Below, piece after piece: positions 11,804 to 64,000 of a stretch of DNA of 64,000 nt. This DNA comes from an uncultured virus (IMG/VR IMGVR_UViG_3300027770_000036) (taxonomy: Duplodnaviria; Heunggongvirae; Uroviricota; Caudoviricetes). The notes below the pieces were generated by a model. It searched no databases, was not told the DNA's origin, and was given only the letters and a program-made list of their open reading frames with translations. The stretch is from the IMG/VR virus record IMGVR_UViG_3300027770_000036, one strand, 5' to 3'. A program made the translations under genes and the position numbers. Every line of letters starts with the position of its first letter. The first letter of the stretch is position 1.

Positions 11804-11810
11804 CTTTACC

Positions 11811-13292: not shown

Positions 13293-13306
13293 ATTAACGC
13301 CCTGCC

Positions 13307-14720: not shown

Positions 14721-14721
14721 T

Positions 14722-19664: not shown

Positions 19665-20138
19665 CTACTGGGTTATTTGTGACCTTTTTATTATCTGCTC
19701 TACGTACGCCTTAACCCCGCCTATGAGGGGGCCTCTAGGGTCTGCTTGACCTTTTCTTCTTCCTGCGGCAAAGGCTTCGCACCTAATTGTTGTGGCGTGC
19801 CTAAGGTTGAACGCTCTCTCCATAGCCTGAAGATAGGCCGCCTGCAACTTTATAGCTTTCATATCTCCTTCTGTTCCGGGTGACCCCGTATCAAATATCT
19901 TGTCGTACTGCTTATCTAACTCTTTAGCTCTAGAGAACGTTATATCATGAACTTCAGAAGTGCTCCAAGGGTTTAGGCCTAGCTTAGAGTGTTGCCCCTG
20001 ATTCCACTGCCTAACCTTACCTGGCTCCAACATGAAGTCAGAGAGGGACTTAGACTGCTCTGCTAAGAGTTCTATGTTCTTTACGAACTCCTCACAGGGA
20101 GCCTTTACTTTTGAATTTCCTTTATAAATGTTGCTCAT
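19665..20138 (-). CDS. Hypothetical protein coupled to the sigma factor gene
   Basis: 157 aa; ATGA start/stop overlap with 20135..20956. Confidence 0.65.
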   Translation of the reverse strand: MSNIYKGNSKVKAPCEEFVKNIELLAEQSKSLSDFMLEPGKVRQWNQGQHSKLGLNPWSTSEVHDITFSRAKELDKQYDKIFDTGSPGTEGDMKAIKLQAAYLQAMERAFNLRHATTIRCEAFAAGRRKGQADPRGPLIGGVKAYVEQIIKRSQITQ

Positions 20139-20956
20139 AATATTCCCATCCTTCCTCTGCTATCCATTTTACTTTGTAGCTCAGCCCTTAGCTGGCTAAC
20201 CCTGGCCGGGCTTACCCTTAGCTTATTGGCCAATCTTGTATTGTCTAATACTGGCTTTCCATGCATTCCAAAAGTATGCTCCATTATTAGTTTAGACCTA
20301 TCGTCTAATCCATCATACACGAAACCCTTCCAGGCTGCACCGGTGTCCATTCCAGGTATAGTAGTAGAGGGGTCGCTAGAGTTTTCATTATCACTATTTA
20401 CCATAGGGGCTGATGCAGCCCCCTCTGATATACCAGATCTAAAGCTTCTAACCTTACCTATTCTCTTAGCGGACAGACCAGTATGCTCAGATAGTTCATA
20501 GTCAGACGGGTCTCTACCTAGCTTGTCCTCAAGCTCGTTAAACGATCTATCTATATAATGGCTGTCTAGCCGTACCCTCTCAGGCACGTTTAATATTTGA
20601 TTAGCCTTGCTTGATATTCTCTTAAGGCCTTGCATATGCCACATAATATGGGTCTTTAATTTAGACTGCATAGGGTCATATGTCTTAAGCCCATCCAAGG
20701 CCATTCTCTTTGCCTGCAGTCTTACACTAGGCGGCACGTCCTGTCCTACATAAGCTTTTACAGCAGAATCAATTAAAGGCTGCATCTTTAGGACCATATC
20801 ATCGTTGCTTTTAAGATTTTGGTTGGTGGTCCACCCTTGGTAGGCAGGAGCGTACTCAGCCTCAAGCTTTGACGGGTTTACAGGTGCTGCTTTGGCGGGC
20901 TTATTATCCAAAGAGAACATTGTGGGGACGTCTCCAAACTTCTTTTTATCTGCCAT
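20135..20956 (-). CDS. Sigma-70 family RNA polymerase sigma factor
   Basis: Region-2-like DGLKTYDP..SKLKTHIMW, region 3 LGRDPSDYELSEHTGL, region 4 HTH RLANKLRVSPARVSQL. Confidence 0.88.
   Translation of the reverse strand: MADKKKFGDVPTMFSLDNKPAKAAPVNPSKLEAEYAPAYQGWTTNQNLKSNDDMVLKMQPLIDSAVKAYVGQDVPPSVRLQAKRMALDGLKTYDPMQSKLKTHIMWHMQGLKRISSKANQILNVPERVRLDSHYIDRSFNELEDKLGRDPSDYELSEHTGLSAKRIGKVRSFRSGISEGAASAPMVNSDNENSSDPSTTIPGMDTGAAWKGFVYDGLDDRSKLIMEHTFGMHGKPVLDNTRLANKLRVSPARVSQLRAELQSKMDSRGRMGIL
20923..20936. repeat. Dispersed palindrome (1 mismatch)
   Basis: tgTGGGGACGTCTCCAaa in the 5' end of the sigma gene. Confidence 0.75.
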
Positions 20957-42237: not shown

Positions 42238-43167
42238 TTACGCAAAGTCGACTCGAGCAATAGAGTTAGTATTGCCGATAGCACCGCCAAGGGTTTCGTA
42301 AGCGAAAAATTCCAGCATATAGGCCTTTCGGTCTATGTAAAGCGTGGTATCTTCCAAAATAAAATTTTTGCCCACGAATTTTGGATCAGCGAACATAAAG
42401 ATGCTGTCCGTAGGAATCAAGTCATGCTTGATAGAGATAATCCAGCGAGCATTCATGAAGTTCTGCTCAGTCCAGCCATTCTTGAAGACGTCCTGGCTAA
42501 AATCACCACCCATTTCTTCACGACCGAACTTCATCAGTTCGCGAATAGTAAGGTTGTTGATCAAGCAGGTGCCTACTTCAAGGCGACTGATTGTTCGTGG
42601 CAGAATCTTGAAAGCGTCCTGCAAGGTGTCACGGGTGATACCACCATAGATGGTTTCCCATTGAACCTGGCCGGATTGAGCTACTGTAGAGTCAGCGGCT
42701 CCGCCCATGGATGCGTTGCAGGCATCGATGAATTTTCTATCTTCTTCCGCTAACATATCTTTAATGGCATTATCCGAGAGGATCTGCCTAATGTCCATGC
42801 GGTAAGTACGAAGTTCATCTACATCCTTCGTGAATCGTGGGGTCACGATACGGTCGAAGGTTACTCGATACTTCTGACCACGAACATAAAGGTTCATAGG
42901 AAGAGTAGCGAAGGGGATGGAAATTGCTGCTGGCGAATCAGGTTCGCGTTCGATAATCTTGACAGGCTTATCGGTATCAACCTGTTGATCGAGATCATCA
43001 TTGCTAACCATGATTGGTGGAAGGATTCTACGGTAGAAACCTTCTTCACGCATCCTGTATCGGGTATAGTCGACCACTGCGTCGAGTGCTCGCTTTTCCA
43101 TTCCAGGGGTGTCAAGGTAGCTGAGGAATGTTTCATTCATCAGTTTAGTGTCGTTATCGTAAGCCAT
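42238..43167 (-). CDS. Major capsid protein (HK97/encapsulin-like fold, putative)
   Basis: 309 aa; MREEGFYRRILPP...RIVTPRF..DVDEL....DI...A.KDMLAEEDRKFI pattern; gene order protease-scaffold-decoration-MCP. Confidence 0.8.
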   Translation of the reverse strand: MAYDNDTKLMNETFLSYLDTPGMEKRALDAVVDYTRYRMREEGFYRRILPPIMVSNDDLDQQVDTDKPVKIIEREPDSPAAISIPFATLPMNLYVRGQKYRVTFDRIVTPRFTKDVDELRTYRMDIRQILSDNAIKDMLAEEDRKFIDACNASMGGAADSTVAQSGQVQWETIYGGITRDTLQDAFKILPRTISRLEVGTCLINNLTIRELMKFGREEMGGDFSQDVFKNGWTEQNFMNARWIISIKHDLIPTDSIFMFADPKFVGKNFILEDTTLYIDRKAYMLEFFAYETLGGAIGNTNSIARVDFA

Positions 43168-50362: not shown

Positions 50363-51287
50363 CGGCCTTGGCCTCCGGTAGTTTGATTCCTACTAAATTT
50401 ACCAAAACCTCTTCGTTACCATTAGCTATTAGGGCTGCTTCACTAGCCCTGGGCTCCGCGGCGTTTGTATCATCAGACATCCAGCTAAGCTCTTTGTTTT
50501 CTTTAATCTGAGAGCCGGTACTAATAACTGATGATATAGCGCTCATGAAACTCCCTAACAAGTTGGGGTTAGAGGATTCAGAGCTTGCCGCAGTAGTATT
50601 CAGGCCAAGCTCCTTATTCTTCTGATGCAGCTGCAATAGCTGCACCTGGTTCCAACTATTCACAGCAACGATTCTAGAACTATGCAGAGTTTTTCTCAAC
50701 ATATTTACGTCTATTTCTTTATCGGCCCACTCCATAGCCTCTTGGCTATTAGTATGGTGCACCAGCCAGTTAAGCTTTTCTGAACCATAGAAGTATCCAC
50801 AGAATTTCCAGATAGCATCAAAGTCTCTCTCGCCTGCGCCGTAGAATACTACCTTGCCTATAGCGTGGTGGACTATCCATGATACATTATCTATTCTATC
50901 AAGCACGTTGAAAAACAGACTCTCATACCACTTTATACATTTAGGAGTAAGACACATATGGCTAGCTATAGTATTAATGTCTTCTCTAGCAAGTATTCTA
51001 GCCTCTAATTCCCATTTTGTAAGTTTAGCGTCGCTCTGTGAATATATAGCATGGGCGTCGGATATGGCCTCATTTAAGATATGCTTGTTATAATACTCCC
51101 AAGAGTTATCAACACTATCAATCATGTAGGCGAACTTATACGATGCCTGAACGAACTTGTCGTCTGAGAACCTGTCTGGAACTCGTTTAGCTTCTACCAT
51201 TGCCAAAGCCTTACGCCATCTCCAGTCCGCAGGGCGGAGAGGGCTAGACTTTCTGTAGTTGGCAAGTTCGGCTGTGGAGGTGTCCAT
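50349..51287 (-). CDS. Hypothetical protein with possible HTH
   Basis: Start at ATG 51287 (TAATG overlap); DINTIASHMCLTPKCIKWYE resembles a helix-turn-helix. Confidence 0.6.
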   Translation of the reverse strand: MDTSTAELANYRKSSPLRPADWRWRKALAMVEAKRVPDRFSDDKFVQASYKFAYMIDSVDNSWEYYNKHILNEAISDAHAIYSQSDAKLTKWELEARILAREDINTIASHMCLTPKCIKWYESLFFNVLDRIDNVSWIVHHAIGKVVFYGAGERDFDAIWKFCGYFYGSEKLNWLVHHTNSQEAMEWADKEIDVNMLRKTLHSSRIVAVNSWNQVQLLQLHQKNKELGLNTTAASSESSNPNLLGSFMSAISSVISTGSQIKENKELSWMSDDTNAAEPRASEAALIANGNEEVLVNLVGIKLPEAKADGNI

Positions 51288-51718
51288 TATCCTATGTCGC
51301 TCCAGCCTGTTAGTGCTACGTCCCAAGTTGCAGCTCCAGAGCCCTCTGGAGTTAACTTTATATAGATACGGCGTTTACGATCGGAAAGAGGGCCGTCATA
51401 ATTCTTGTAAGCTCTGCCCAGCTCGTCACTAATGGTCAAGTACTCTCCAGAAGTACCGCTGGCAGTAGGGAATACTCTATACAGCTCTGGATCAGATGAG
51501 TAGTCTCCTTCTGGGTTGGCTCCTCCCGATGAAGAAGCCCCTAGAAAAGCCTTTTTTGAGTTATAGACATCTACGGTAAAGTTAACAAGTTGGTCATCGC
51601 CTACTTGCTTTATAATTATTTTCTTAATAAATCCTTCCGAGAAGAACCCTAGCTCTAGCTCGGAGCTTTGGCCCTTAGGGGCTTGGATACTTCTATAGTG
51701 TTTTTCGTATATACGCAT
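51287..51718 (-). CDS. Hypothetical beta-rich protein
   Basis: 143 aa; AGGAG RBS. Confidence 0.65.
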   Translation of the reverse strand: MRIYEKHYRSIQAPKGQSSELELGFFSEGFIKKIIIKQVGDDQLVNFTVDVYNSKKAFLGASSSGGANPEGDYSSDPELYRVFPTASGTSGEYLTISDELGRAYKNYDGPLSDRKRRIYIKLTPEGSGAATWDVALTGWSDIG

Positions 51719-51731
51719 TGGTCACTCCTGG

Positions 51732-54503
51732 TTACGCATCGCCTTCTAAGCTTACACCCTCATCAGGATAAGCATTAATAGTCTTCTGCTTAAGGAAAAG
51801 TAGTAGGTCGCCTAGTTGCTCAAAGGAGTCCCTAAGACCATCTTCTAGTTCTGGAAGGTCCTTCTTACCATACCTGTCCTCAAACTTGTCTTTATGCCAG
51901 TAGAAACTAAACAGTATTCTTCCAAGTTTATCAAGACCTTTCATAAGGTCTCCAAGGTGAGAGTCCACCATGCTGTCATCTCTAACTGACTTTACCAAAG
52001 AACCAATCATAGAGGTATCAAATACATCTTTCTGCCCAGTAGAGGCGGCGTTGTATCCGACAGCCATTGTTTTAGGGTCAGGAAGTCTTGGATCATATAA
52101 TGCATTGTTACCCTGAATAGAAGGGTTAAACGCAGGAACAGTTTGCTCGGAAGGGTACGTTGAATTAACGCTTCCCATAAGAGTCTGCTCCATTCCAGTA
52201 GGGGCTGATGGAAAAGATGGAGAGGCTGGGCCGCCCATCATGGTCTGATCTATATTATCGCCTGGAGCTGCCGACTTAATAAGGTCTCCAGCGTTATCAG
52301 CCTTGTAGAGTCTGTAGTCTACTACTTTTTTATGAGCAGCTTCTTTTAGAATAGCTCTAGCGTGACTCTCTCCCATAGATACATCTCTAACTAAATGGAT
52401 AAGCGCATCTTCAGGATTAAACCTACGCCCATTAACCATGACTTCAGAGCCAGAGTGTCGGACATTAAGGCTAGCTGTCTTTTGATAGATAGCGTGCTGA
52501 AGGTCAGTGAGACTTCCTGGAGTGATAGCTCCGTCATTGTTATCAGAATCAGACAGCTTAAGTATCTTGAAGTTACCTGGAATATACAGGTCACCTCTAA
52601 TACCTTTAATGCGAACTCCAGGCTTGCTGGTAACATACATAAGACTTCCGCCGCCAGGAATCTTAGTACTATGCATATCGAAATCGCTGTAAGAACCTCT
52701 ATGCTTAACATCAGGAAGGTAAGATGGCCTAGAACAGCAGGCCCAGTCCTTATAGTTAACCCTATAAGTCTTAGTGCCGTCAGCCTCTCCTACTTCTTTG
52801 AGTACCGTAAATGGCACGGATGAGTCTCCGTTTTCACTGACAGCCATATAGGTGTTTCCAGATTTTAACTTGGAAATAGGGTCCATTGCTTCAAACACAT
52901 CTCTAAAGTTTTTGGACTTTAAACTGTATGGTGAATCCTGACTTCCGTCCTTGGGGTCCCTAATGAATAGGTTACCTGGATGAGAGTTGATCCAGTTATG
53001 ATCACTGTTATCTAGCCCTACAACTGTAGCAAACTCTTGTCGACCTTTAGGGCCGTGAGGGGCCATAAATACGGCAACTCTTCGCATTGCAAAAGGAGAG
53101 ATAAGAAGGTCATACACGCCTGGGTTAGAGGGGTTCTCTAAACTTGTAGGCTGTTGAACTTTATAAGGTATGGCTAACTCGTCTGCAGACCTTGCATCAT
53201 TGAATATGACGCCGTCTGTAATTAATTTCTTTTTTTCTTCTTCGCTAGCCCCCATAACTCCGTCAGAGGAGGAGCCGAAGCTCTTTATAACAATACTAAG
53301 AGCACTCTTATAGTGAGTAGCTACCTTTACTGGGCCGTCAAGTACTCCAGGAGTCTTTAGGTTCTTATAGGTTTCTACTGCTTCTTTAAGAAAGTTACTG
53401 CCGTATACCTTTTCGACTGCTTCTGCAATCTTAGGAAACTTCTGGCAGGTGTTTAATAAAGAGGTAACAAGTTGCTTGTAGGACTCTTTACCTCTAGACG
53501 CTTCCTTTTTAAGGAATGTCTTTAAGGTAAGCCTGTTCTTGTACTTAGGATCAAACTCTGGATTAGTGCAGGCATACTTAGCTAGCTGCCTAATACCATC
53601 TAGCATTTCTTTTCTATCAGCTGATCCAGCCTTGTAGCCGCCGGGAACGCCCATGCTTGCTCCGCTGTTTCCAGGGAATTGTTGTGGCACTGGAGTAGGT
53701 CTAGGAGCTGAACGGCTGAATCCTTGGGAGCCTGCGCCACCTTGTCCGCCGTTATAGACAGGGCCAGTCAATGAGCGATCTCTAGGACCTTGAGTTCCTG
53801 TACCACCTTGCCCGCCATTATAACCTGCAGTCGTACTTCTTGTAGGATCCTTTGGCGGCTTATTGTACTCGAGCCCAGTACCTCCGTGGCCACCATTCCA
53901 GCCCGCTACGGTAGCGGCGGGGTCTGGCTTAAAGCGTGTAGGAGTAGGCTGATTAGAAGAGTAGTTATTATCTGCCGTATTAGGCTTATTACCTTCTGAA
54001 GTATTATAAGTAGGGAAAGCCTGCTTGGTAGAAGCAAACTTAGTAGGAGGGCGGGTGAAGGCCTGAAGGTCAGGAGCTAGAAATCCTAACCTAGCCATAT
54101 TCTGATCGGTCTTCTTTCCTAGGCTAGCTGGCTTTCTTCTGAGAATATAATTTAACCAGTTCTCCTTAAGGGGAACAAACTGATCTTGGTCTTTCAAGAA
54201 CAATAACTCATGCCCTTTTAGATCACCGTTAATAAAGAATACTGGTGCGTAGAGCCATTGAGGGCCTACCTTGAATCCGAATACACCAACAGCTTTGGTG
54301 TTATCTTCATTACGTTCCATAAGCTCAAAGCCCACTTCATAGTCCAGAAGACCAGGGGCTTTATCTTTTAGGTAAGCATGAGCAAGATTGCTAAATGCTT
54401 GCTCAAACTGGGTATCATTACCTGGATCTCCCTCGGCTGTCTTTTCGACAAAGCCGTTAATAGGAGGAAGTTCAACAAAGAAGTTCTTAATATCTTTACT
54501 CAT
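51732..54503 (-). CDS. Large putative head-associated protein with K-x-A sites and disordered inserts
   Basis: 923 aa; EKTA, KFASTKQA, KEAS, KTAS and KSAA; (Y/W)NGG(Q/H)GG repeats. Confidence 0.65.
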   Translation of the reverse strand: MSKDIKNFFVELPPINGFVEKTAEGDPGNDTQFEQAFSNLAHAYLKDKAPGLLDYEVGFELMERNEDNTKAVGVFGFKVGPQWLYAPVFFINGDLKGHELLFLKDQDQFVPLKENWLNYILRRKPASLGKKTDQNMARLGFLAPDLQAFTRPPTKFASTKQAFPTYNTSEGNKPNTADNNYSSNQPTPTRFKPDPAATVAGWNGGHGGTGLEYNKPPKDPTRSTTAGYNGGQGGTGTQGPRDRSLTGPVYNGGQGGAGSQGFSRSAPRPTPVPQQFPGNSGASMGVPGGYKAGSADRKEMLDGIRQLAKYACTNPEFDPKYKNRLTLKTFLKKEASRGKESYKQLVTSLLNTCQKFPKIAEAVEKVYGSNFLKEAVETYKNLKTPGVLDGPVKVATHYKSALSIVIKSFGSSSDGVMGASEEEKKKLITDGVIFNDARSADELAIPYKVQQPTSLENPSNPGVYDLLISPFAMRRVAVFMAPHGPKGRQEFATVVGLDNSDHNWINSHPGNLFIRDPKDGSQDSPYSLKSKNFRDVFEAMDPISKLKSGNTYMAVSENGDSSVPFTVLKEVGEADGTKTYRVNYKDWACCSRPSYLPDVKHRGSYSDFDMHSTKIPGGGSLMYVTSKPGVRIKGIRGDLYIPGNFKILKLSDSDNNDGAITPGSLTDLQHAIYQKTASLNVRHSGSEVMVNGRRFNPEDALIHLVRDVSMGESHARAILKEAAHKKVVDYRLYKADNAGDLIKSAAPGDNIDQTMMGGPASPSFPSAPTGMEQTLMGSVNSTYPSEQTVPAFNPSIQGNNALYDPRLPDPKTMAVGYNAASTGQKDVFDTSMIGSLVKSVRDDSMVDSHLGDLMKGLDKLGRILFSFYWHKDKFEDRYGKKDLPELEDGLRDSFEQLGDLLLFLKQKTINAYPDEGVSLEGDA

Positions 54504-54543
54504 GTTCTTAACCTTCTGTGGCGTAGAAAATGTTCATAGAGCT

Positions 54544-54572
54544 ATTATGCCCTTTATTCCGCATCTCTGCAA
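54544..54572 (-). promoter_or_regulatory. Candidate promoter TTGCAG-N17-CATAAT
   Basis: Intergenic, exact 17-nt spacer, ~40 nt upstream of the 54503 start. Confidence 0.5.
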
Positions 54573-54587
54573 TGATTACACAAAACT

Positions 54588-55001
54588 TTAATGTCTAATA
54601 TATGTTTCTTTTACATTAATAAGGCTTCTAGCCGCTACCCCGCTCTTAATAAAGTTAAAGAAGTTTATTAGGTTTCTAACTTCAGCCATCTTATCATTAC
54701 TGTTAATGGAAGCAGAAGTGGAGACGTCTCCACTAACTGGAGGGGCCGCCATAGGGGATGGTATAGCGTCCCTTGGCTGAATAGAGGAAGCCGACTGCTG
54801 ATTTGTAACTGGAGGAGGTTTTATATTAGGAGCAGTGTCTACCGCCTTAACCGCGACTTCAGCTGGAGGCTTACCTTTAGAGGCAGAGGATAGGTCCATA
54901 GGCTTTAAAGCCTTCTGCTCTACTTTAGATTCTGAGCCTTCTAGCTTAAGGTTTTTTTCTGCCTTCTTCCAGTTGGCCCATTTATTAAGAAACGCACTCA
55001 T
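54588..55001 (-). CDS. Low-complexity hypothetical protein
   Basis: 137 aa; TAATG-coupled to the beta' C-terminal gene; contains an 18-bp perfect palindrome site. Confidence 0.6.
   Translation of the reverse strand: MSAFLNKWANWKKAEKNLKLEGSESKVEQKALKPMDLSSASKGKPPAEVAVKAVDTAPNIKPPPVTNQQSASSIQPRDAIPSPMAAPPVSGDVSTSASINSNDKMAEVRNLINFFNFIKSGVAARSLINVKETYIRH
54719..54732. repeat. Dispersed palindrome (perfect, extends to 18 bp)
   Basis: AGTGGAGACGTCTCCACT. Confidence 0.9.
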
Positions 55002-56908
55002 TACAGTACCCCTTTACTATCTAGCTGTGGGCCTATTTCGTTTATGTCGTAGCCTCTTACGGCCCCTTTTCGACCGAAGTCTACAGCCTTTGCAAGAGAA
55101 GGTACATATGAAGTTCCCTTCTCATCACTTATAGCCCCACTGTGTACGGCTTTTAGAGTGGACTTCTTTAGATTACTTCCTAGCATCCTAGTCATCCAGT
55201 CAGGGTCATGCTGAAGATTCTCCAAGCCCCTAACAAAGTGAGGAGCAAATGGAGGAGGATTTTTATGTATTGTCACATCCTTAATGCCAAACTTATCAAG
55301 ATTACTTGCAACAGAGGCTTTTATAGGAGTGCCTATAGTGTAGTGAAGAACGGGCCTTTCTAAGTAAGACCCTATAGCCTGTGAGGGTTTAACTACCCTA
55401 GAGTCATCTCTAGGCTCCCAATCGTGCTCTACAGAATCATAAGGAACCACTTCGTCTGGAGAGAACTGCTTATACTCGTCACTCATCATTACATGGTTTA
55501 TAAGGCCCTTTGACATGACCTCTACGTTGCGCCTATGTCCGCTCATACCCGCGTCCTTCATAGCGTTCTTAAAGGATGATACAAATTGCCTTCGGCCTTC
55601 GCCTATACCTTTATGCTTAGTAAACTGAGCAGGGTTAGGTATGCCTGATGATAAGACGTCTCCGGCTTCTACCATGTCACCTATCTTTACAGTAGGAGTA
55701 GCTCCTGGGGCTATGTAATGATCTATGCCGTTAATATTTAAGAACACACCGCCCGTAGGCGCAGGCTTAATACCAGCTACTCTTCCGTCATTATCAGCGT
55801 GCCTAGCCCAGAACGGAGACTGCTTAGGGGCCTGAACTAATTGATTTAGGTGCTTAAACCCGGAGACTCCACCAGAGGCTCCAGCTACACCGCCAGTGTG
55901 CTTGGAGTTAAGCTGCCCTTGGGATATAGGCTCAGATAGGGCCTGCATAGCGGCAATACCTACTGAGTCCCCGAAAGGCGACATCCCTGATCTTTCTCTC
56001 ATTCCCAGATCCTTGGAATACAAACCTCCGTTAGGACCACCAGAGGCAATAGGGCTTCTTACTACAATATCGTCGATGCCTTTTGCTTTGAGATCTTTTA
56101 GAACTCTAGGAGTTAATAAGGTGTTCCTTTTATAGCCTCCAGCTGGCATAGATAATAAAGCGCCTTCGTTATCACTGTCTTCAGTACTTACTGGCATACC
56201 TCTGTTCTCTAATGACGTAGGATCTTCTGCGTCTTCTCCTGTTACTATCATTCTATGGCCGATCTGATTAAGCTGCTTTGAAAAGAAGCCAGCGTCCATA
56301 GTAGCAAACTTATTATCAGTAACTCCCTTTCTAGCTCCAAAGCTTCCAGCGAAGTATTCAGCAGGGCTTAGCCCTTTTGCGTAAGAGTTAAATACAGGAA
56401 TAGGTATAGCGTTATCGTGATGATCAGTATAAAGCATGTCACCGCCGAGTAAGCTCTTTAGATTAATAGGCTTACCTCTAGACCCGGACTGGACTTGCCT
56501 AGCTAACTGATTACCTGTTTGTTTGGCTTCTTCGAATATGCCCTTCTCTATGTCTGCCTGAGATGAGTTTAGTAGGCTAGATACTTCTTTGTTTTTATCT
56601 TTATCGTCTCTATTTGGGTTAGACATTATTTTAGCTATCTGCATCTTTAGCTTATCTTTAGCTCCAGCGTAGAACTTAGACTCCCTCATGTCCTTAAGGC
56701 CAAACGAGAATCCACCGCTGCTGTAGGATACTGCTCTGCCTACGTCTAGCAGTTTCTTGGCTACTTCTCTGTACTTATCTGGGTGATTTTCTGCGACAGA
56801 CTGCATAAGCTGTTGTGTAGCTTTGCTGTCTAGAACTCTAGAGTAGTCTCTAAGCCCTTCAGGTAGAGCGTCGTTGACCATGATCTGTCCTATCGTGGTC
56901 TTTAACAA
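55001..56908 (-). CDS. RNA polymerase beta' subunit, C-terminal part (bridge helix and trigger loop)
   Basis: TTIGQ..VN..LP, SGSRG, GLSPAEYF..SFGARKG..D....T.DAGFF (bridge helix), QALSEPISQ...KHTGG (trigger loop) and RRNVEV. Confidence 0.92.
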   Translation of the reverse strand: MLKTTIGQIMVNDALPEGLRDYSRVLDSKATQQLMQSVAENHPDKYREVAKKLLDVGRAVSYSSGGFSFGLKDMRESKFYAGAKDKLKMQIAKIMSNPNRDDKDKNKEVSSLLNSSQADIEKGIFEEAKQTGNQLARQVQSGSRGKPINLKSLLGGDMLYTDHHDNAIPIPVFNSYAKGLSPAEYFAGSFGARKGVTDNKFATMDAGFFSKQLNQIGHRMIVTGEDAEDPTSLENRGMPVSTEDSDNEGALLSMPAGGYKRNTLLTPRVLKDLKAKGIDDIVVRSPIASGGPNGGLYSKDLGMRERSGMSPFGDSVGIAAMQALSEPISQGQLNSKHTGGVAGASGGVSGFKHLNQLVQAPKQSPFWARHADNDGRVAGIKPAPTGGVFLNINGIDHYIAPGATPTVKIGDMVEAGDVLSSGIPNPAQFTKHKGIGEGRRQFVSSFKNAMKDAGMSGHRRNVEVMSKGLINHVMMSDEYKQFSPDEVVPYDSVEHDWEPRDDSRVVKPSQAIGSYLERPVLHYTIGTPIKASVASNLDKFGIKDVTIHKNPPPFAPHFVRGLENLQHDPDWMTRMLGSNLKKSTLKAVHSGAISDEKGTSYVPSLAKAVDFGRKGAVRGYDINEIGPQLDSKGVL

Positions 56909-56911
56909 AGC

Positions 56912-57130
56912 CTACCCTCCTAAGTTTATCTTCCTAATATTAGACGGCTTTATACCGTAGTCTTCCAGCATCTTTATGAAGTTAGCGTCACCTGCTGCAT
57001 AGTAGGTTGTTATGTTCTTCTCGTTCTCAACAAACAAGGCCAGAGGATTATTAAAGTTGTCACATACTAGAAGCCTTGTGGCTTTTACTTCAGCCTTGTC
57101 CCTAAATGAGTCATGGAAGTCTAGGATCAT
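56912..57130 (-). CDS. Small hypothetical protein
   Basis: 72 aa, tightly packed between its neighbours. Confidence 0.6.
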   Translation of the reverse strand: MILDFHDSFRDKAEVKATRLLVCDNFNNPLALFVENEKNITTYYAAGDANFIKMLEDYGIKPSNIRKINLGG

Positions 57131-57822
57131 TTCTTCATCTTTCTGAGCAGGTACATAATACCGGCAGCCTTTTCAGCTGTAGGTACATGGCGCATACCAG
57201 CTGTCTTAGCCGGAGGTGCTGCTGGAGCATCTTTTCCTGCCGCCTGATCATCAGGTTGTTTTGGTACATCATCTAGGATGTCGCCAGGAAGATTGAGCCC
57301 TAATGAGGAATACAGGTGAGTTAACAGCTTTTGAATGCGGTGCATATACAGCTCAGCATTACCGCCGTCATTCTTCTTAGCTGTGCCCTTACCGCCCTTA
57401 GCAGCAGACAAGGCTTTTGCCAGCTCTTCTTGAATTACAGAGCGAAGTTGTGCTGAAGGGTCAGCTGGAGGAGCACCACCCATCATGGAAGGATCCATAG
57501 GAGGAGCACCGCCCATCATGGAAGGATCCATAGGAGGAGCACCACCTCCCGGAGGAGGAGCACCACCTCCCGGAGGAGGAGCACCACCCATCATGGAAGG
57601 GTCCATAGGAGGAGCACCACCCATCATGGAAGGGTCCATAGGAGGAGCGCCACCCATCATGGAAGGATCCATAGGAGGTCCACCTGGCGGAGGGGCACCT
57701 CCCATCATAGAAGGATCCATAGGAGGTCCACCTGGCGGAGGAGCGCCGCCGCCTTGAGGAGGCATGAATGCTTGTTTGATGCTCTGTCTAGCTGCTTGCA
57801 GAAGATACTTATTAACTGCCAT
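57127..57822 (-). CDS. Pro/Gly/Met-rich disordered protein
   Basis: 231 aa; KQA followed by GGAPPMDPSMM repeats. Confidence 0.75.
   Translation of the reverse strand: MAVNKYLLQAARQSIKQAFMPPQGGGAPPPGGPPMDPSMMGGAPPPGGPPMDPSMMGGAPPMDPSMMGGAPPMDPSMMGGAPPPGGGAPPPGGGAPPMDPSMMGGAPPMDPSMMGGAPPADPSAQLRSVIQEELAKALSAAKGGKGTAKKNDGGNAELYMHRIQKLLTHLYSSLGLNLPGDILDDVPKQPDDQAAGKDAPAAPPAKTAGMRHVPTAEKAAGIMYLLRKMKK
57466..57762. repeat. 33-bp-type tandem repeats encoding GGAPPMDPSMM (6 copies) with GGAPPP spacers
   Basis: Repeated ggaggagcaccacccatcatggaaggatccata. Confidence 0.9.
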
Positions 57823-57861
57823 GTAATCACCTTAGTTTTCAGGAAGACTGTTCATTTTTAA

Positions 57862-58437
57862 TTAGCGGTGATAGACCTTACCTGGTTCTTGATCTTCCTC
57901 TTTGCCGGTATAGTCATTAGTAAAGCTTTCCCAAGCCCCGGGTCTATGCTCACCGTACCCAGCCCAGTTCTCTGGGTTCATCTCATCTCCTTCTACTAAA
58001 GAGTACTCCTTCTTTGGAGCTCTTTTGAGCTTGTGCAACAAATTAGACAGCGTAGACTTAGCGTAGTTTACTGGAAGCGTGCCCCCTTCTTCACCCCAGT
58101 TGTTGTCTGGAGACAAGTAGGAAGCTCTATCCGCGCCCGTACGCCCCATTCCAAGCCTAATGGCGGCTTCATTAATACCACCACCAGCTAAAGCACCAAT
58201 ACCGCCGCCAGCTAAGGCTCCTCGACCTAATCGGCCTAGAGCACCTACGCCTTTCTTTCTTTTACCAAAGAGAGCATTGCCTACGCCGCCTACAGCAGCA
58301 CCAGCTCCTCCGGCTAAGAGAGCAGCTTGAACTGTGGGGTCCATGCTTTCTAGGAAGGCTTGCTTAACCCTAAGGCCATTTACATGACCTAAGTATGAAG
58401 CCAGTTTAACTGCGTCGCTGTTATCTATATTTCTCAT
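57862..58437 (-). CDS. KQA-preceded glycine-zipper protein
   Basis: RVKQA-FLESMDPTVQAALLAGGAGAAVGGVGNALFG...GALAGGGIGALAGGG. Confidence 0.7.
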   Translation of the reverse strand: MRNIDNSDAVKLASYLGHVNGLRVKQAFLESMDPTVQAALLAGGAGAAVGGVGNALFGKRKKGVGALGRLGRGALAGGGIGALAGGGINEAAIRLGMGRTGADRASYLSPDNNWGEEGGTLPVNYAKSTLSNLLHKLKRAPKKEYSLVEGDEMNPENWAGYGEHRPGAWESFTNDYTGKEEDQEPGKVYHR

Positions 58438-58473
58438 GCTTGCACCTTTTAATAAAAAGAAGTAACTGGTTGG

Positions 58474-59613
58474 TTAAAGTTGGGATCTACCGCTTGAAGG
58501 GAAGTCCCCGAGACGCATATTTGGATTACGTTGTCTTCCAGCGCTTTCAAAGTTATATTCACCTGGAAGACCTGGAGATGCTTCTGCGGGATTACCAAGA
58601 AGCCTTGAAAGGCCCTTGTTAATGCCTTCATTCCTTGTGCTACTAAGGCCCCCGCTAGCTCTGGATATTGGATCGCCTTCTCCAGGAAACATTTCAGGGT
58701 TGATCTGCATGTGCCTAATCACATCATCTTTAGAGAAAGTGTTAAGAAGCTTATCGCCAAATCGTTGCGCCGCCCCGTGGGCGCCTCGGCTAAGTCCTTG
58801 AAGACCAAAGATCGGTCCTTCAGCCTTTTCTTGAAGTGACCTAATAAGTTCAGCATTATTACTCATATTCTGATCGTCGGATGGGTCATACTGACTGCTG
58901 ACCAGCTCCAAATTAGTAGGACTATCACTGTTTAGCTTATTATTGGATAAGCCTAGGCGGTATTGAAGTTCCTTAGCTTTATCTGAAAGGTAATTGGCCC
59001 CGCCAACAGCCTTATCTTTAACAGAGTTAGCCGCACCAACGACCGAGTCCTTAGCGGAATTAGCCGCACCCATAGCCTTGTCTTTAATCTTACCGGTTTC
59101 AGCTACAATTTTGTCTTTAGCCTTACCTACTCCCTTTTCTAACTTGTCTTTATTCTTACCTAGAACTCTACTAACTTCTGCAATGCCTGGATCGATATAT
59201 TTTTTCTTGATAGGATCGTATATGTTGTCTTTTCCGAGTCGGCCAAGAGCGCCTACACCTGCGCCAGCTACACCGCCAATGCCTGCGCCTTCACCTAAGC
59301 GGCGAATAAGGCTCTTCTTCTTATTACCTAAAACTGCATTACCTACACCGCCAACGCCTGCGCCGCCAAGCCCACCGAGAATAGCTGCTCTGGCAGTTGG
59401 GTCAAGAGCTTGAAATCTTCCTAACGCATTCATGGTAGCGTTTCGTGAGCCCTCCATGGCGCTGTTAGCGTAACCCTTAACTCCAGAAGTGATACCCCTA
59501 AGGACTTTCCCAATGGAATCGTGTTGAGCTTCTGAGTCATCTCCCTCTGCTTGCTTATAGAGGTTTCCTACTCGGTTTGAAAATGCTCTGAGTACTATTT
59601 CTCGATTAGTCAT
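58474..59613 (-). CDS. KQA-preceded glycine-zipper protein with 11-mer amphipathic repeats
   Basis: Start at ATG 59613 (AAGGAG RBS); LDPTARAAILGGLGGAGVGGVGNAVLG; KDKAMGAANSA/KDSVVGAANSV/KDKAVGGANYL. Confidence 0.7.
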   Translation of the reverse strand: MTNREIVLRAFSNRVGNLYKQAEGDDSEAQHDSIGKVLRGITSGVKGYANSAMEGSRNATMNALGRFQALDPTARAAILGGLGGAGVGGVGNAVLGNKKKSLIRRLGEGAGIGGVAGAGVGALGRLGKDNIYDPIKKKYIDPGIAEVSRVLGKNKDKLEKGVGKAKDKIVAETGKIKDKAMGAANSAKDSVVGAANSVKDKAVGGANYLSDKAKELQYRLGLSNNKLNSDSPTNLELVSSQYDPSDDQNMSNNAELIRSLQEKAEGPIFGLQGLSRGAHGAAQRFGDKLLNTFSKDDVIRHMQINPEMFPGEGDPISRASGGLSSTRNEGINKGLSRLLGNPAEASPGLPGEYNFESAGRQRNPNMRLGDFPSSGRSQL

Positions 59614-59791
59614 CACCTTGACTCCTTGTCTTTTAAATGTTCCATCATTTGAACACACAACACAGCGAGGCCGGATAGCCTCAAATATAAATCCAATACT
59701 ATTAACATTACCACGAATTACTATCACAGCAGTAGTCTAATATTTACTTATAACATTTATCTATATCTATCCGCTAGACCTTAAAGCCTAC

Positions 59792-61282
59792 TTATTTTAC
59801 TTTTTGAGATCCTACTTCCCTTAGCAGACCAAGGAACTTTTCATTCAATTCCTGCTTACGAGCGGCTGCTGCTATAAGGTAGTCATCGGTAGCCATATCT
59901 GGGTTAGCCTTAATGCCGACGTACCTCAATAGAGACTTTAATCTTCCTGGTGCAGTTCTAGCTATGTATCTCTCTATCTTAACCTTTCTGTCTTCAGGAG
60001 GAAGATGTTCATGGCTGTCATATCTTAGAGCCCTGCCTTCACTTTGCGTACTCCTAACGTTATTCCAATGTGGATCCAGAAGCTGAACAAGTTTAGTGCC
60101 CTTAAAGGATAGCCCCTCAGTTCCAGACGGTCCTAGCAGAGCTACTTTTAGTTTGTCTGAGTTGTAGTCGTCAACTAGCTGCTTTCTCTTCTTATCAGAT
60201 AGGGAGCCAGTGAAAGAAGCTGCAGGTATTCCGGCTTTATCTAGGGCTGCTTGATAAGGGTCTAAGCCGGCTTCTATAAAGTTAGAGAATATAAGAGCCT
60301 TGCCTTTAGGGTCTTTAGTAAGCAAAGAGTTAAGGCGCTTAAAGGCTTCTGTCAGTTTTGGAGACCTATCAAACGCAGTTATTGGCTGGGCATTATCTTT
60401 CATGAACGTACTAGTGGACAACCCGATCTGTCTAGGCCCTGTTAGGAAGCTAAACATCTTCTTAGACTCTGCGTCCGTAAGAGGATAATTTAGCTGAAGT
60501 TTCCACTTTAGAATAGCTGGCAGTTTTCCGTATAGCTGGTTATGGAGATCGGTCTGATCTCTATTCATTTCTGTTATTACATCTTCTCTATTGATCTCAG
60601 CCTTGGGCTTAAGCGGAGCAAAGTAATCTACTTTACCTTCTAAGTCCTTCTTAAGCTCGGCTACGTTTTTTAGCTCTGGGCCCGGGGCCTTAGAGTGTAA
60701 AAGGACATTATACCAAGAGGGCTTTGTAACCTTTTGTACATACCTATCTTGAAAAGCCTCTGGAGTTATATCTTTTCCAGTAAGAACGCTATAGGGCATA
60801 GCGAAGTCTGCAGGAGAGTTAACTATAGGAGTGCCAGTCAGCATCACTACTTGCCTAGCTTTTCTTGCTGCTTCTAATAGGTTCTTAGACTGATCTGACT
60901 GAGTGTTTCTAAACCTATGGGCCTCGTCTACTAATAAGGAGTCTGGGTTCTCTATAGGAAGCCCCTTACCAACACCTGTATGGCTCATTATGCTACTAGG
61001 AACAGCAGTAGCTTGATCTATGAACTTCTCTTGTTCTTTCTTTAAGTTAGTTCTTAGAGATGCAGGAACTATAGCTGTATATGGTGTCTTACTAGCTTCA
61101 GCGGCGGCTAATCCGCTCAGAGTCTTACCAGAACCTAGGCTATGGTATAGAAGTAGTCTTGCGCTGTCTTTCTTAGCTAGCTGAGATTGTACCTTATTTA
61201 CAACCCTCTCTTGGTGGGGCTGCAACTGGATACTAGGGCTAATATCCGCCTGCTTATCAATTATGGAGACGTCTCCACTCAT
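59792..61282 (-). CDS. SNF2-family (SF2) helicase/ATPase
   Basis: HSLGSGKT, VDEAH, LTGTP, LIFSNF, EGLS and QSEGRALR. Confidence 0.93.
   Translation of the reverse strand: MSGDVSIIDKQADISPSIQLQPHQERVVNKVQSQLAKKDSARLLLYHSLGSGKTLSGLAAAEASKTPYTAIVPASLRTNLKKEQEKFIDQATAVPSSIMSHTGVGKGLPIENPDSLLVDEAHRFRNTQSDQSKNLLEAARKARQVVMLTGTPIVNSPADFAMPYSVLTGKDITPEAFQDRYVQKVTKPSWYNVLLHSKAPGPELKNVAELKKDLEGKVDYFAPLKPKAEINREDVITEMNRDQTDLHNQLYGKLPAILKWKLQLNYPLTDAESKKMFSFLTGPRQIGLSTSTFMKDNAQPITAFDRSPKLTEAFKRLNSLLTKDPKGKALIFSNFIEAGLDPYQAALDKAGIPAASFTGSLSDKKRKQLVDDYNSDKLKVALLGPSGTEGLSFKGTKLVQLLDPHWNNVRSTQSEGRALRYDSHEHLPPEDRKVKIERYIARTAPGRLKSLLRYVGIKANPDMATDDYLIAAAARKQELNEKFLGLLREVGSQKVK
61264..61277. repeat. Dispersed palindrome (perfect)
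   Basis: taTGGAGACGTCTCCAct at the start of the helicase gene. Confidence 0.9.
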
Positions 61283-64000
61283 TACTTAGTCTCCATTATA
61301 ACTATCTTGTCGTTGGCTTCAATCTCGCCTGCGTGGTAGGCCCTAACAGCATCAGCCTTAGTCTTGAAGTACTTTTCTTGCCTATTGCTAGGAGCAGACG
61401 TAGCGGTATACAAGCCACCTTGATATTCATTAGCTGGAAGCTGGTGAGCTTTAAAGTTCTTAACAGCAAAGAGGTTTTTACTTGGAAGCATCTTATCCAT
61501 AGCATCTTTAACGGCTTCGTCTGTAGCCGGAACGTGGTAGTTCATAGCATCTCCATCGAAGTCGGCATTAAAGCCCTTAACAATAATAGGAGGAACTTGA
61601 AGCGTGCTACCGCTTACTAACCTAGGTCGAAAGGCCATAACTCCATACCTGTGTAGAACTGGAGCGCGGGCAATGATTACCGGCCTAGCCCCCATCTCTT
61701 CTAGCATGGCGTCTTTGGCCATTGGATCTTTATTTTCAATAAGGTCTACGGCTGCGTGCCTATCTACTCCGCGCCTAATTAATCTTCTCATTATGAATGG
61801 CTTATACACCGACCATGCTCTGTCTTCTGGTAAGCCAACCTCATCCATGTCTAAGTCAGGGTTAGGAGTAATAGCTGCTCTGCCTACCATATCTACCTGA
61901 GACCCTAATAACTTACGTTGTAGAACACCAAACTTAGGGCTGTCCCCGAATACTTGTTTAAGTATTCCTTTGACGCCCTTCTTTACAAGCTTAGGATTTA
62001 CTGGGTCGCCTATACCTGTAACAGCCTTAAATGAATCGTAGAGAGCCAGCCTGTGATCTCCTATATCGGAGAATGACTTAGAGGCTTCTTTCATTTCATT
62101 GTTAGTGTCTATTAGTTCTTTGTATAGATAGTTAGCATCAGCAATCATTGGAAGGCCACTACCGCCCATTAAGCTTACTGGCCTAAACAGTGGCGGAATA
62201 ACTGGTACTTTGTTCATCATCCAATCTGATGGGTGTATCTTTAGCTCTTTAGATGACTTGAGGTATCCTAGCTTTCTTACAGCAGCATCTCTATAGGACT
62301 TCTTTCCAGATGCTATATCAGCCCGGGCCTTAAGAAGCTCTCGATCAACATTTATTGATCCTAGTGCGCTCTTTATAGCCGCCGGGCCTGACGCTCCATT
62401 AAGCTGCTCCTTGCCAGATAGGACTGCCCTAAACTTATCCTCTGTTAAACCTAGCACCCGCCTAATAGGGTCTTCCATTACTGGATTAGGCATTGCCTCA
62501 TGAAGCTTTATATGACTCCAGTCTGTGCCTCCGTGGCCTCCAGTAAGTCTAACGTCAAATAAGCCACCACCAGCAGGCTCAAGCCCTTTGTCCCAGTCTA
62601 CTGTGTCTGATCTCTGAATCTCTCTATTACCTGATAGGGAGTCTACGTCCTTATCGGTCATAGCCATTAACTGCGTTCTGGAGCCGTTCCTTACAGGGTT
62701 AATTCCTGAGGCCTGCAGCTGCGCCATAAACTTTCTATAGGTAAGCGGCACCCTCGGAATAGGCATAGCCTTTCCAGTCATAAATGCTGCCCAGTAATCT
62801 TCATTCTTTTGGCCTCTGATAGCGCCCGCATCTCTGGCAACTTCATGGGCTCCGTGAGAAAGAAGGGCATTAATATCCATCAAGGATACTCTCTTACTTC
62901 CCTCTTCCCCGCCTCTAGCTGGAGTGTCTTCGGCAGTATAGCCGCCTGCACCTGCACCCCTACCCTGCCCCTTTGACTCAGATGTATGGTGTAGCTTCAT
63001 AAAGAAGCGGCTGCCGGTGAAAATTCCCTTTATCTTTTTACCTGTCTCGGGGTCTTCTATGTCTTCCATGTCGCTTAAGTTATTCTTCTTAAGCTCATTA
63101 ATAGCGAACTCTGTAAGATCATTGATATTTTCGAAGTCCTTTACGGCGTACCTTTTACCTGTCTTCTCGGCTATCTTGCCTAGGGCCGTCTCTATCATTT
63201 GACTAGGGTTTGTTCTTGTTATAACGCCGAGAGGGTTTAGTAGTACTTCAAAAGGTCTACCATTAGCATCTCTAGGCATTTTATCGTCTGGCACAATTGT
63301 AGATATAACGCCCTTATCGCCGTACCTTCCAGAAAGCTTATCGCCTTCTTTCATAGCGCTTAGGCTCTTTACAGTTACAGCTGTTCCTTTACCGGTTTTA
63401 GACACATCAGTAACTACACCATCGTTTTCGTGGTCCCAGGTTACAGAGTTATTACTAAACCCAGACCTAGACCTTCCAACTTGGTTATGTGACCTGGAGA
63501 GTATCTTAGACTGAACTATAAGTGGCTCTCCCTTTTTGACTACAGCCCCAGGCTGAATTACGCCATCATCGTCGAGCCTGTCTAGTACTTGTCTGGTATA
63601 CTCTGATGGAAATAAAGTTGTGAATGAGTTCTTACCCTGCTTAGTGTCCGCTCCATACTCTGCTTCATGCTGATACATGTGCTCAGAAGTAAGACGCTTA
63701 GCTGCAGCCTCTGAAATTACTATGGCATCCTCAAAGTTATGTCCCTTGTAGGGTATATAAGCCGTTCTAAGGTTCATACCTAAAGCGGTAGCGCCTTTAT
63801 CGTCAGTGTAGTTTGACTTGGCAAGAAGAGCCCCCTTGTTTATAACGTCTCCTACCTTTACAACTGGAGTGTTGTGTAAAAAGGTCTTTCTATTAAAAGG
63901 AAGATTATTATAGATCTCTTGCTTATACAACTTTCCGTCTCTACCTCTTATGTGTACTTCATCTCCGTCTACTTTAATAACCTGCCCTTCTACCTCTGAG
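61282..64000 (-). CDS. RNA polymerase beta::beta'(N-terminal) fusion protein (partial, 5' end beyond window)
   Basis: Beta motifs GHNFEDAI, GDKLSGRYGDKG, LNPLGV..R.N and MKLHH; beta' motifs PVIPP.FRP, LLG..VD..GR..I, RAPVLH and NADFDGD. The frame stays open upstream of 63930 to the window edge (SEVEGQVIKVDG...). Confidence 0.93.
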   Translation of the reverse strand, partial: SEVEGQVIKVDGDEVHIRGRDGKLYKQEIYNNLPFNRKTFLHNTPVVKVGDVINKGALLAKSNYTDDKGATALGMNLRTAYIPYKGHNFEDAIVISEAAAKRLTSEHMYQHEAEYGADTKQGKNSFTTLFPSEYTRQVLDRLDDDGVIQPGAVVKKGEPLIVQSKILSRSHNQVGRSRSGFSNNSVTWDHENDGVVTDVSKTGKGTAVTVKSLSAMKEGDKLSGRYGDKGVISTIVPDDKMPRDANGRPFEVLLNPLGVITRTNPSQMIETALGKIAEKTGKRYAVKDFENINDLTEFAINELKKNNLSDMEDIEDPETGKKIKGIFTGSRFFMKLHHTSESKGQGRGAGAGGYTAEDTPARGGEEGSKRVSLMDINALLSHGAHEVARDAGAIRGQKNEDYWAAFMTGKAMPIPRVPLTYRKFMAQLQASGINPVRNGSRTQLMAMTDKDVDSLSGNREIQRSDTVDWDKGLEPAGGGLFDVRLTGGHGGTDWSHIKLHEAMPNPVMEDPIRRVLGLTEDKFRAVLSGKEQLNGASGPAAIKSALGSINVDRELLKARADIASGKKSYRDAAVRKLGYLKSSKELKIHPSDWMMNKVPVIPPLFRPVSLMGGSGLPMIADANYLYKELIDTNNEMKEASKSFSDIGDHRLALYDSFKAVTGIGDPVNPKLVKKGVKGILKQVFGDSPKFGVLQRKLLGSQVDMVGRAAITPNPDLDMDEVGLPEDRAWSVYKPFIMRRLIRRGVDRHAAVDLIENKDPMAKDAMLEEMGARPVIIARAPVLHRYGVMAFRPRLVSGSTLQVPPIIVKGFNADFDGDAMNYHVPATDEAVKDAMDKMLPSKNLFAVKNFKAHQLPANEYQGGLYTATSAPSNRQEKYFKTKADAVRAYHAGEIEANDKIVIMETK

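Follow-up and report, generated by a model that had tools for sequence, protein, structure and literature searches.

A phage RNA polymerase with beta fused to the front half of beta-prime and the remainder of beta-prime in a separate gene

Multisubunit RNA polymerases are thought to need an alpha dimer as assembly platform, and in Helicobacter and Wolbachia the beta and beta-prime subunits occur as fusion proteins. In cyanobacteria and plastids beta-prime is divided into gamma (RpoC1) and RpoC2, the cut falling between the catalytic barrel and the bridge helix. The present work concerns a stretch of 64,000 nucleotides (hereafter the window) of the uncultured freshwater phage IMG/VR IMGVR_UViG_3300027770_000036 (Caudoviricetes), in which one gene (chain 1) encodes beta fused to the catalytic front half of beta-prime and a second gene (chain 2) encodes the rest of beta-prime, a layout that an earlier annotation of the window (the original prediction) had proposed as a distinct architecture.

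Among phages, the phiKZ/AR9-type polymerase is a two-barrel enzyme without alpha and omega, in which beta-prime is split after the barrel and one enzyme set is packaged; beta is in two to three pieces, no sigma homologue is present, there are two enzyme sets and the sequences are very divergent (PMC7598289, PMC7824862, accessible parts). The cut in beta-prime 'following the DPBB' (double-psi beta-barrel) coincides with that of cyanobacteria (PMC7598289, accessible part), and for the polymerase-linked Swi2/Snf2 helicase of phiKZ-type phages a RapA-like role has been suggested by Iyer and co-workers, according to the excerpts available. The recognisably bacterial-type polymerase of the mReC phages consists of a beta of ~1144-1211 amino acids (aa) and a beta-prime of ~1400-1500 aa, encoded by separate, distant genes (PMC7481178, accessible part). 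The architecture of the window is shared by Salmonella phage Arash (OQ632216), with gp206 (1525 aa), gp216 (606 aa), sigma factor gp10 and helicase gp217, and by the Vibrio phages D181, D148 and D69.

Architecture and distribution of the two chains

The window part of chain 1 is a stop-free frame of 905 codons (61282-63999, minus strand) with an open 5' end, the first 591 codons lying beyond the window. A protein search provided the full-length protein, P0003 (1496 aa, on a contig of 125,993 bases), which supplies the upstream beta N-terminus, including Rpb2_3, that the original prediction had recommended looking for. As claimed there, beta C-terminal motifs run directly into those of beta-prime within one open reading frame (ORF): GDKLSGRYGDKG is found at residue 219 of the window part, LNPLGV at 254, MKLHH at 334 and NADFDGD at 811. 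The recommended domain models agree, with RNA_pol_Rpb2_6 (PF00562) at residues 30-350 (E 1.3e-51), RNA_pol_Rpb1_2 (PF00623) in the same chain (E 2.8e-24) and a weak match to Rpb1_1. Both the beta-type double-psi barrel module (Rpb2 domain 6) and the beta-prime barrel with its metal-binding DxDGD triad are thus present in a single chain.

When a profile of 38 fused homologues is compared with Salmonella RpoB, four blocks align, up to residue 1375 of the annotated 1380, and the same profile then continues along Salmonella RpoC 159-550. The profile lacks RpoB regions ~267-458 and ~977-1088, and the first 158 residues of beta-prime are represented by only ~80 positions. Inspection by eye shows that chain 1 has lost the segment in which E. 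coli carries the N-terminal zinc-binding cysteines and that chain 2 lacks the cysteines of the second zinc site; we take these residues to be the zinc sites of beta-prime, while the absence of cysteine is measured. Judged from its sequence, chain 1 is a complete, trimmed beta followed by the N-terminal half of beta-prime without its zinc domain. The alignment with Salmonella also extends over the flap-tip segment of beta and the clamp helices of beta-prime, the elements on which sigma docks. Ahead of the conserved beta N-terminus, and outside the window, P0003 carries a variable, gap-rich and Pro-rich extension (residues 1-50), which could be a targeting signal or a processed leader.

The junction between the two subunits (P0003 961-1110) is free of gaps in the 38 aligned homologues and shows 56-78% identity per 30-residue segment, which is the level of the catalytic parts, and the alignment indicates that no flexible linker is present. 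A query of 181 aa covering the junction matched 1049 representatives at E<=0.001, of which 991 also passed E<=1e-10 and 439 passed E<=1e-30; of the best 150 among these 1049, every one spans the junction. Many of them are 1800-3350 aa long, probably because of inteins. Some relatives do have inteins with LAGLIDADG homing endonucleases in chain 1 or chain 2 (L041 8297-14029, L008 14713-18897, L013 13718-16756 and L042 16034-22777; called with Pfam Intein_splicing, Hom_end_hint and LAGLIDADG_2/3), and the genes of the window have none. It could be supposed that chain 1 is a precursor that is cut, for example by a head-maturation protease, or internally re-initiated to yield separate beta and beta-prime N-terminal proteins, since head-internal proteins of large phages are often processed, a subtilase-type protease gene is present in the window (Table 1) and peptide mass spectrometry cannot separate a fusion from its pieces. 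However, a junction conserved like a catalytic domain and kept in one frame by all the matches inspected does not resemble a loose linker, and some bacteria also possess fused forms (NCBIfam NF007172 and NF011417, 'subunit beta/beta''), so that such processing appears improbable.

Chain 2 lies 4374 bases from chain 1, with five ORFs in between. It begins L(M)-L-K-T-T-I-G from a TTG codon that is preceded by GGAGG nine bases upstream and placed three bases after the stop of the preceding gene, which bears out the proposal that the gene of the bridge helix and trigger loop starts at the TTxG motif, five genes and 4.4 kb downstream. The motifs GARKG (at 191) and HTGG (at 337), together with Rpb1_5 (PF04998, at 179-357), are spanned by alignments to Thermus beta-prime 943-1111 and 1175-1383, and the elements that we take to be the bridge helix and the trigger loop are both present. 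Of 16 aligned chain-2 proteins, all have a conserved TTxGQ a few residues from the start, 15 of them reading MLKTT or MLRTT. Among the 120 longer chain-2 relatives listed, none extends N-terminally and no unsplit form of this polymerase was found. In 117 of these 120 (P0124-P0242) the start residue is the same and a poorly conserved, Ala/Gly/Pro/Gln-rich extension of 500-800 aa or more follows at the C-terminus, in place of which the window has a separate Pro/Ala-rich ORF of 137 aa after chain 2.

The cut itself can be placed closely. When both chains are aligned jointly with Salmonella beta-prime, the end of chain 1 falls opposite '...HARVKVRI' (~residue 550-555), ~85 residues past the catalytic Asp triad, and the start of chain 2 opposite '..LKDTTVGR' (TTVGR at 572), leaving out only a variable loop of ~15 residues; on the NCBIfam rpoC profile the match of chain 1 stops at position 534 and that of chain 2 sets in at 548.

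In a sequence assembled from a metagenome, such as the window, a fusion or split might come from faulty assembly or sequencing, or from a decaying gene. This explanation has next to no probability here. In three DNA runs, each from a different study, contigs span 61282-64000 completely (30 of 30 bins) without insertion, deletion or joint, and two long contigs span the junction (~62440-62802) with 0 gaps. When the 40 listed substitutions are applied together, 33 are silent, seven change an amino acid and no stop arises; neither the stop nor the frameshift at the junction that had been named as a possible refutation was therefore found. Moreover, the same layout recurs in hundreds of assemblies made independently and in cultured phages of three groups. 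All or most of the stretch is present in 14 public runs (at least half of its words), and at least part of it in 20 rows from 15 studies altogether. One RNA-library run (X19) gave short contigs on 11 of the 30 bins, which was not counted as expression because such libraries can contain DNA.

Related loci in IMG/VR number 42, with 43-84% identity and on contigs of up to 225 kb. The fused ORF is complete at 1441-1491 aa in 33 of them; of the others, four are cut by contig ends, three are longer (1814, 1814 and 1911 aa) and two have beta in more than one ORF. A separate chain-2 gene follows on the same strand, 830-5091 bases downstream, in 37 of the 42, and the five loci without one comprise four cut by the contig end and L043, where none occurs within 10 kb. 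A 525-aa ORF downstream in L043 was considered as chain 2 and rejected (BLASTP E 0.71 against chain 2). In a protein collection, 1217 clusters were retrieved at E<=1e-20 among 7998 candidates; of the best 120 clusters, 113 are 1400-1530 aa long, all 113 keep xxDFDGD, and 119 of the 120 carry both Rpb2_6 and Rpb1_2 according to the table of matches. A search of contigs from metagenome-assembled genomes gave a single contig of 3.1 kb (L050) and no clue to the host. The fused and split layout is neither an artefact nor a peculiarity of this window, which is one member of a very large, mostly uncultured phage lineage.

Partner subunits, cysteine content and probable packaging

Partners of the polymerase were sought in five related records; CheckV puts four of these at 90% completeness or more, and control profiles matched in 14 of 14 cases. 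The search for alpha and omega, advised in the original prediction, found neither alpha (PF01000) nor omega (PF01192) in any of the five records or among the ORFs of the window, and exactly one Rpb1_2-bearing ORF was present in each record. A divergent protein of the sigma-70 family is encoded among the baseplate genes, as is gp10 in Arash, to which it is related (BLASTP E 3e-16). All 11 of its NCBIfam matches are sigma models (best FliA/WhiG, E 1.2e-6 over 88-264), as are 19 of its 20 PDB matches at E<=1 (best FliA, E 0.0046). Homologues with 36-63% identity are found in five of five related records, two of which show a faint Sigma70_r4 match on this protein, and one of the five has a further, clear r4 protein. 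The protein is a candidate sigma-70-type initiation factor of this polymerase.

Cysteine is entirely absent from the window part of chain 1 (905 residues), from chain 2 (635), from the SNF2/SWI2-type helicase encoded next to chain 1 (496) and from the sigma-like protein (273); the 51 genes of the window average 0.78% Cys. Full-length P0003 has one cysteine, located in its N-terminal part, and among 113 fused full-length homologues 105 have none, seven have one and one has two. Between 54588 and the window end there are eight genes, six of which encode no cysteine, while the 72-aa protein contains one and the 417-aa protein two.

Virion mass spectrometry of Arash yielded 3516 spectra for gp206, the most of any protein, 1210 for gp216, 1148 for gp217 and 467 for gp10 (PMC10585845, accessible part). 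Divided by protein length, these figures give 2.3, 2.0, 2.4 and 2.0 spectra per residue, respectively, and such near-equal counts fit a stoichiometric set, although they are no proof of packaging. Homologues of Arash gp216, gp217, gp218 and gp10 are encoded in the window; when the Arash portal, gp199, gp213 and others were compared with the IMG/VR loci by tblastn, only gp218 gave relatives. The possibility of virion packaging raised in the original prediction becomes plausible through the presence of gp206, gp216, gp217 and gp10 in the Arash virion, and for the window phage, where we infer it from this analogy, the polymerase is probably packaged as well.

With moderate confidence, we read the locus as encoding a sigma-dependent, alpha-less and cysteine-free two-chain catalytic core that is made late, packaged and delivered with the DNA. 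Architecture and composition are the well-supported side of this reading. The two genes would then between them supply every part of the catalytic core of a multisubunit phage RNA polymerase, chain 1 contributing the whole trimmed beta together with, from beta-prime, the clamp helices and the double-psi barrel that binds Mg, but no zinc domain, and chain 2 the funnel, bridge helix, trigger loop and C-terminal part of the clamp. The covalent join between beta and beta-prime most likely replaces the assembly platform otherwise formed by the alpha dimer and omega, and promoters are most likely read through the divergent sigma-70-type factor, for which the docking flap tip and clamp helices are retained. 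Late synthesis, packing into the capsid and delivery with the DNA, after which the enzyme would transcribe the early genes, are suggested by the co-directional structural block, by the lack of cysteine in polymerase, sigma-like protein and helicase, and by the Arash homologues found in virions.

Several observations weigh against this reading. The absence of alpha and omega was determined with Pfam profiles in five relatives only. The sigma-like protein scores below every curated cut-off, far below in the case of NCBIfam (Pfam Sigma70_r3 gave 23.8 bits against a cut-off of 25.3), and Sigma70_r2 was found in none of the five related records. An AlphaFold2 model of the 905-aa window part, built on a 25-row alignment, reached a mean predicted local distance difference test (pLDDT) of 60.7 and a predicted template modelling score (pTM) of 0.38, with the beta-prime barrel below 50. 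In Arash, the polymerase counts per residue exceed those of the portal (877 spectra over 579 aa, or 1.5 per residue), which could reflect many copies or contamination; ribonucleotide reductases, RNA ligases, a dNMP kinase and a pyrophosphatase are likewise in the structural proteome, and the authors offer carry-over of abundant enzymes beside early transcription (PMC10585845, accessible part).

In line with these last points, the two-chain polymerase could be real and active and yet be made in infected cells for middle or late (or all) transcription, appearing in Arash preparations through its abundance in the lysate. Apart from the carry-over that the Arash authors raise and the clearly non-structural enzymes on their list, this explanation can draw on the multisubunit polymerases of Rhizobium phage Y65 and Vibrio phages 1.031.O and Va2, which sit among replication genes, and on the single polymerase per genome in five of five relatives, from which it follows that the same enzyme serves later transcription too unless the host enzyme is used. 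On the other hand, the genes form part of a co-directional structural block exceeding 60 kb, beside the homologue of Arash gp218; the sigma-like gene stands among baseplate genes in both phages; polymerase, sigma factor and helicase have near-equal counts per residue in Arash; and all three are free of cysteine in the window. An enzyme confined to the infected cell is hence unlikely, albeit a serious alternative to the packaged polymerase that we favour.

A further proposal, which we advance only tentatively, is that these enzymes would form a distinct class of virion RNA polymerases beside the single-subunit enzyme of N4, the multiply split enzyme of phiKZ, the crAss-like and the tape-measure-fused ones, free of zinc, cysteine, alpha and omega, working with a sigma-70-type factor, co-packed with sigma and the SNF2 helicase and injected with the DNA; the Pro/Met-repeat protein and the 72-aa protein encoded between the two chains would be assembly or packaging helpers. 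If this is true, about a thousand 50%-identity clusters, mostly from freshwater phages of ~200 kb, would start infection independently of the host polymerase, and packaging with injection would place beside the phiKZ and N4 strategies one that depends on sigma, in a large phage group that has hardly been studied. The absence of cysteine and of both zinc sites offers a testable clue to how large proteins may traverse the phage tail, and with Arash as a cultured member the idea is directly testable. A widespread natural enzyme without alpha and omega, in which beta is tied covalently to beta-prime and beta-prime is cut at a surface loop, would also represent a ready-made minimal core for studies of assembly, sigma docking and evolution.

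Gene neighbourhood

From ~3.4 kb rightwards, every gene of the window is encoded on the minus strand (Table 1). The helicase start overlaps the chain 1 stop by one base (TAATG). Helicase homologues occur in four of five related records, in two of which they lie ~27 kb from the polymerase, so that a helicase next to the polymerase characterises this sub-group and Arash. In a larger sub-group (~59% identity) the gap between the polymerase genes measures only ~1 kb and holds two genes, one for a Pro/Ala/Met-rich repeat protein of ~200-250 aa and one for a protein of 68-90 aa that ends just before chain 2; the gap of the window holds both of these plus the helicase and two glycine-zipper proteins. 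The repeats of the 231-aa protein are flanked by a conserved N-terminal helix and a conserved C-terminal part, and relatives have a counterpart in the same place. The gene of the 72-aa protein overlaps the gene before it by four bases and ends three bases before the chain 2 start, which suggests coupled translation of the 231-aa, 72-aa and chain 2 genes. For the 72-aa protein there was no Pfam family, no usable ESM Atlas match and, by eye, no counterpart in Arash or D181; complex predictions of it with chain 2 scored 0.01 and 0.00, which speaks neither for nor against binding.

Table 1. Coordinates of the polymerase genes and of other features in the window
Feature	Coordinates	Strand	Basis or remark
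Collagen-like tail-fibre gene, running off the left end	1-3367	(-)	36-, 99- and 135-base tandem repeats
Subtilase	13307-14368	(-)	Peptidase_S8, E 5e-56
Baseplate J/wedge protein	17522-19156	(-)	
Divergent sigma-70-family protein, 273 aa, among baseplate genes	20135..20956	(-)	candidate initiation factor
1678-aa protein, zero cysteine	23960-28996	(-)	no family
Small cysteine-rich HNH endonuclease	38786-39097	(-)	7.8% Cys
Glycosyltransferase-2/methyltransferase fusion	40047-41309	(-)	
Major-head-protein match, weak	42238-43167	(-)	
923-aa protein, Arash gp218 homologue	51732..54503	(-)	phmmer E 4.4e-12
137-aa Pro/Ala/Ser-rich protein, start overlapping chain 2 stop	54588..55001	(-)	ORF
Chain 2, 635 aa (beta-prime C-terminal half: funnel, bridge helix, trigger loop, C-terminal clamp part)	55001..56908	(-)	Pfam, alignments
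Conserved 72-aa protein directly upstream of chain 2	56912..57130	(-)	16-row alignment
231-aa protein, PPMDPSMMGGA-type tandem repeats	57127..57822	(-)	Pfam Mucin-like, below cut-off
191-aa glycine-zipper protein	57862..58437	(-)	no family; homologues in 3 of the closest loci
417-aa protein with glycine-zipper stretch	58474..59727	(-)	no family; sequence read by eye
SNF2/SWI2-type helicase, 496 aa	59792..61282	(-)	Pfam Helicase_C, SNF2-rel_dom, ResIII; Arash gp217 homologue, phmmer E 3.2e-67
Chain 1, 3' 2.7 kb (beta and N-terminal catalytic half of beta-prime)	61282..64000	(-)	Pfam, motifs

The neighbours had been taken for putative internal head proteins, a description that found no support in their sequences; they are glycine-zipper and low-complexity proteins without known family. 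Arash gp218 is a structural protein in the Arash record and paper, and gp213, a glycine-zipper protein encoded between the Arash polymerase genes, is listed as structural (PMC10585845, accessible part). Further baseplate homologues, of Arash gp12-gp14, are also in the block. Scans of 50000-64000 gave no signal either for promoters (15 found, 19.8 expected) or for terminators (12 found, 12.7 expected), and the five genes upstream of chain 1 in the relative L005 matched no family.

Elsewhere in the window, the collagen-like fibre gene has a GC content of 0.59, compared with ~0.45 in the remainder, and all six frames are open over its first 1.4 kb. The subtilase, a protease type unusual for a phage structural block, lies among tail and baseplate genes and is a possible maturation or processing enzyme. 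The 1678-aa protein, encoded by the largest gene of the block, is possibly a tape-measure or ejected protein. The HNH endonuclease and the glycosyltransferase/methyltransferase fusion are both situated inside the structural block, near the head-protein-like gene.

Comparison with known polymerases

In bacterial beta/beta-prime fusions the C-terminus of beta is joined to the N-terminus of beta-prime, as in chain 1, and by E-value P0003 matches the fusion family NF007172 better than any other NCBIfam model (1.9e-105), at 353 bits, far short of the cut-off of 5372. The bacterial proteins, however, combine a full-length beta with a full-length beta-prime (profiles of 2839-2890 positions) and function together with alpha and omega, whereas in chain 1 no complete beta-prime follows beta. 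The cyanobacterial and plastid enzymes resemble the window in the place of the cut, and the best PDB match of the beta-prime N-terminal part is the cyanobacterial gamma chain 8syi_D (E 1.2e-47), although matches across bacterial phyla are equally good (E ~1e-47 to 1e-41). The split falls in the inter-domain region where the cyanobacterial and phiKZ/AR9 splits also lie, but upstream of the cyanobacterial one. On the gamma profiles (619 and 626 positions) the match of chain 1 extends to 552-558, and on 8syi_D (624 aa) to 551, ten residues before the chain 1 end; chain 1 itself ends near position 556-562 of these profiles, and in profile coordinates gamma continues for ~60 further positions. By this arithmetic the cyanobacterial cut lies ~25-55 residues further on, in agreement with the earlier statement that TTxGR stays in RpoC1, and beta is not fused there. 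The offset is arithmetic and not a direct alignment because the chain-2 N-terminal profile (16 rows) reached actinobacterial and other beta-prime proteins in the PDB, yet none from cyanobacteria at E<=0.01; a PDB search with only the first 120 chain-2 residues gave no significant match.

In comparison with the phiKZ/AR9 type, the window polymerase has a whole and fused beta, a sigma-like gene, a single enzyme set in the relatives and plain bacterial similarity (E 1e-47); the split beta, the two sets and the lack of a sigma homologue that mark this type are not seen. Separate full-length beta and beta-prime genes, as reported for mReC phages in the accessible part of their description, are likewise not found. 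Rhizobium phage Y65 and Vibrio phages 1.031.O and Va2 have an unsplit beta-prime of 1127-1263 aa. In Ralstonia phage RP13 beta-prime is split and the second gene starts at about the chain 2 start, but the first piece ends ~40 residues earlier and is unfused to beta.

The accessible part of the Arash paper names gp206 and gp216 simply beta and beta-prime, with no word on fusion or split (PMC10585845), and the architecture was not found described in the accessible parts of that paper, of a 2020 jumbo-phage review or of a 2021 comparative survey (PMC7598289, PMC7824862). The same applies to the mReC paper and its supplement, in whose accessible text 'fused' is used only for crAssphage (PMC7481178), and to a 2026 review, whose accessible text has neither 'Arash' nor 'fused' (PMC13282480). 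Full-text literature searches, with subscription journals outside their scope, gave no description either; the architecture is thus deposited in GenBank (Arash, D181, D148 and D69) and undescribed as far as searched. The claim of a distinct, recognisably bacterial-type architecture stands, in that beta runs to within 5 residues of its C-terminus and continues into RpoC 159-550; the layout is not unique to the window, since these cultured phages share it.

In D181 the beta part is cut further by a homing-endonuclease gene: within 9330-14844 of this locus (L002), a 1545-base ORF is followed by small ORFs and a free-standing endonuclease and then by a 3021-base ORF, which holds the rest of beta fused to the beta-prime N-terminal part. 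Mobile endonucleases may be a route by which such polymerase genes get cut. Arash and the window are deeply divergent (24-35% identity). In Arash the helicase follows chain 2 and opposite-strand genes separate the two chains, while in the window the helicase follows chain 1 and no such genes intervene; moreover, Arash chain 2 does not begin with the TTxG motif.

The phylogeny recommended in the original prediction was carried out as two quick maximum-likelihood trees of beta-prime (22 rows, ~1045 columns) with 14 fused/split phages, four other phages and only four bacteria; the row of the 525-aa ORF of L043 was removed in a rebuild, with the same grouping. All fused/split rows form one branch (Shimodaira-Hasegawa-like approximate likelihood ratio test, SH-aLRT, 100), inside which Arash and D181 make up one of two lineages, while the unfused Y65, RP13, 1.031.O and Va2 group in a second branch and the bacteria in a separate, third one. 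Long branches were flagged, and the deep order of the trees is therefore not trustworthy. By tblastn, the window part of chain 1 matches Arash over 99% of its length in a single alignment (35% identity), and chain 2 over 96% (23.5% identity). Both phages have beta and the beta-prime N-terminal part in one ORF and a separate gene for the beta-prime C-terminal part, and the shared branch in the trees points to common descent of the window polymerase with Arash gp206/gp216.

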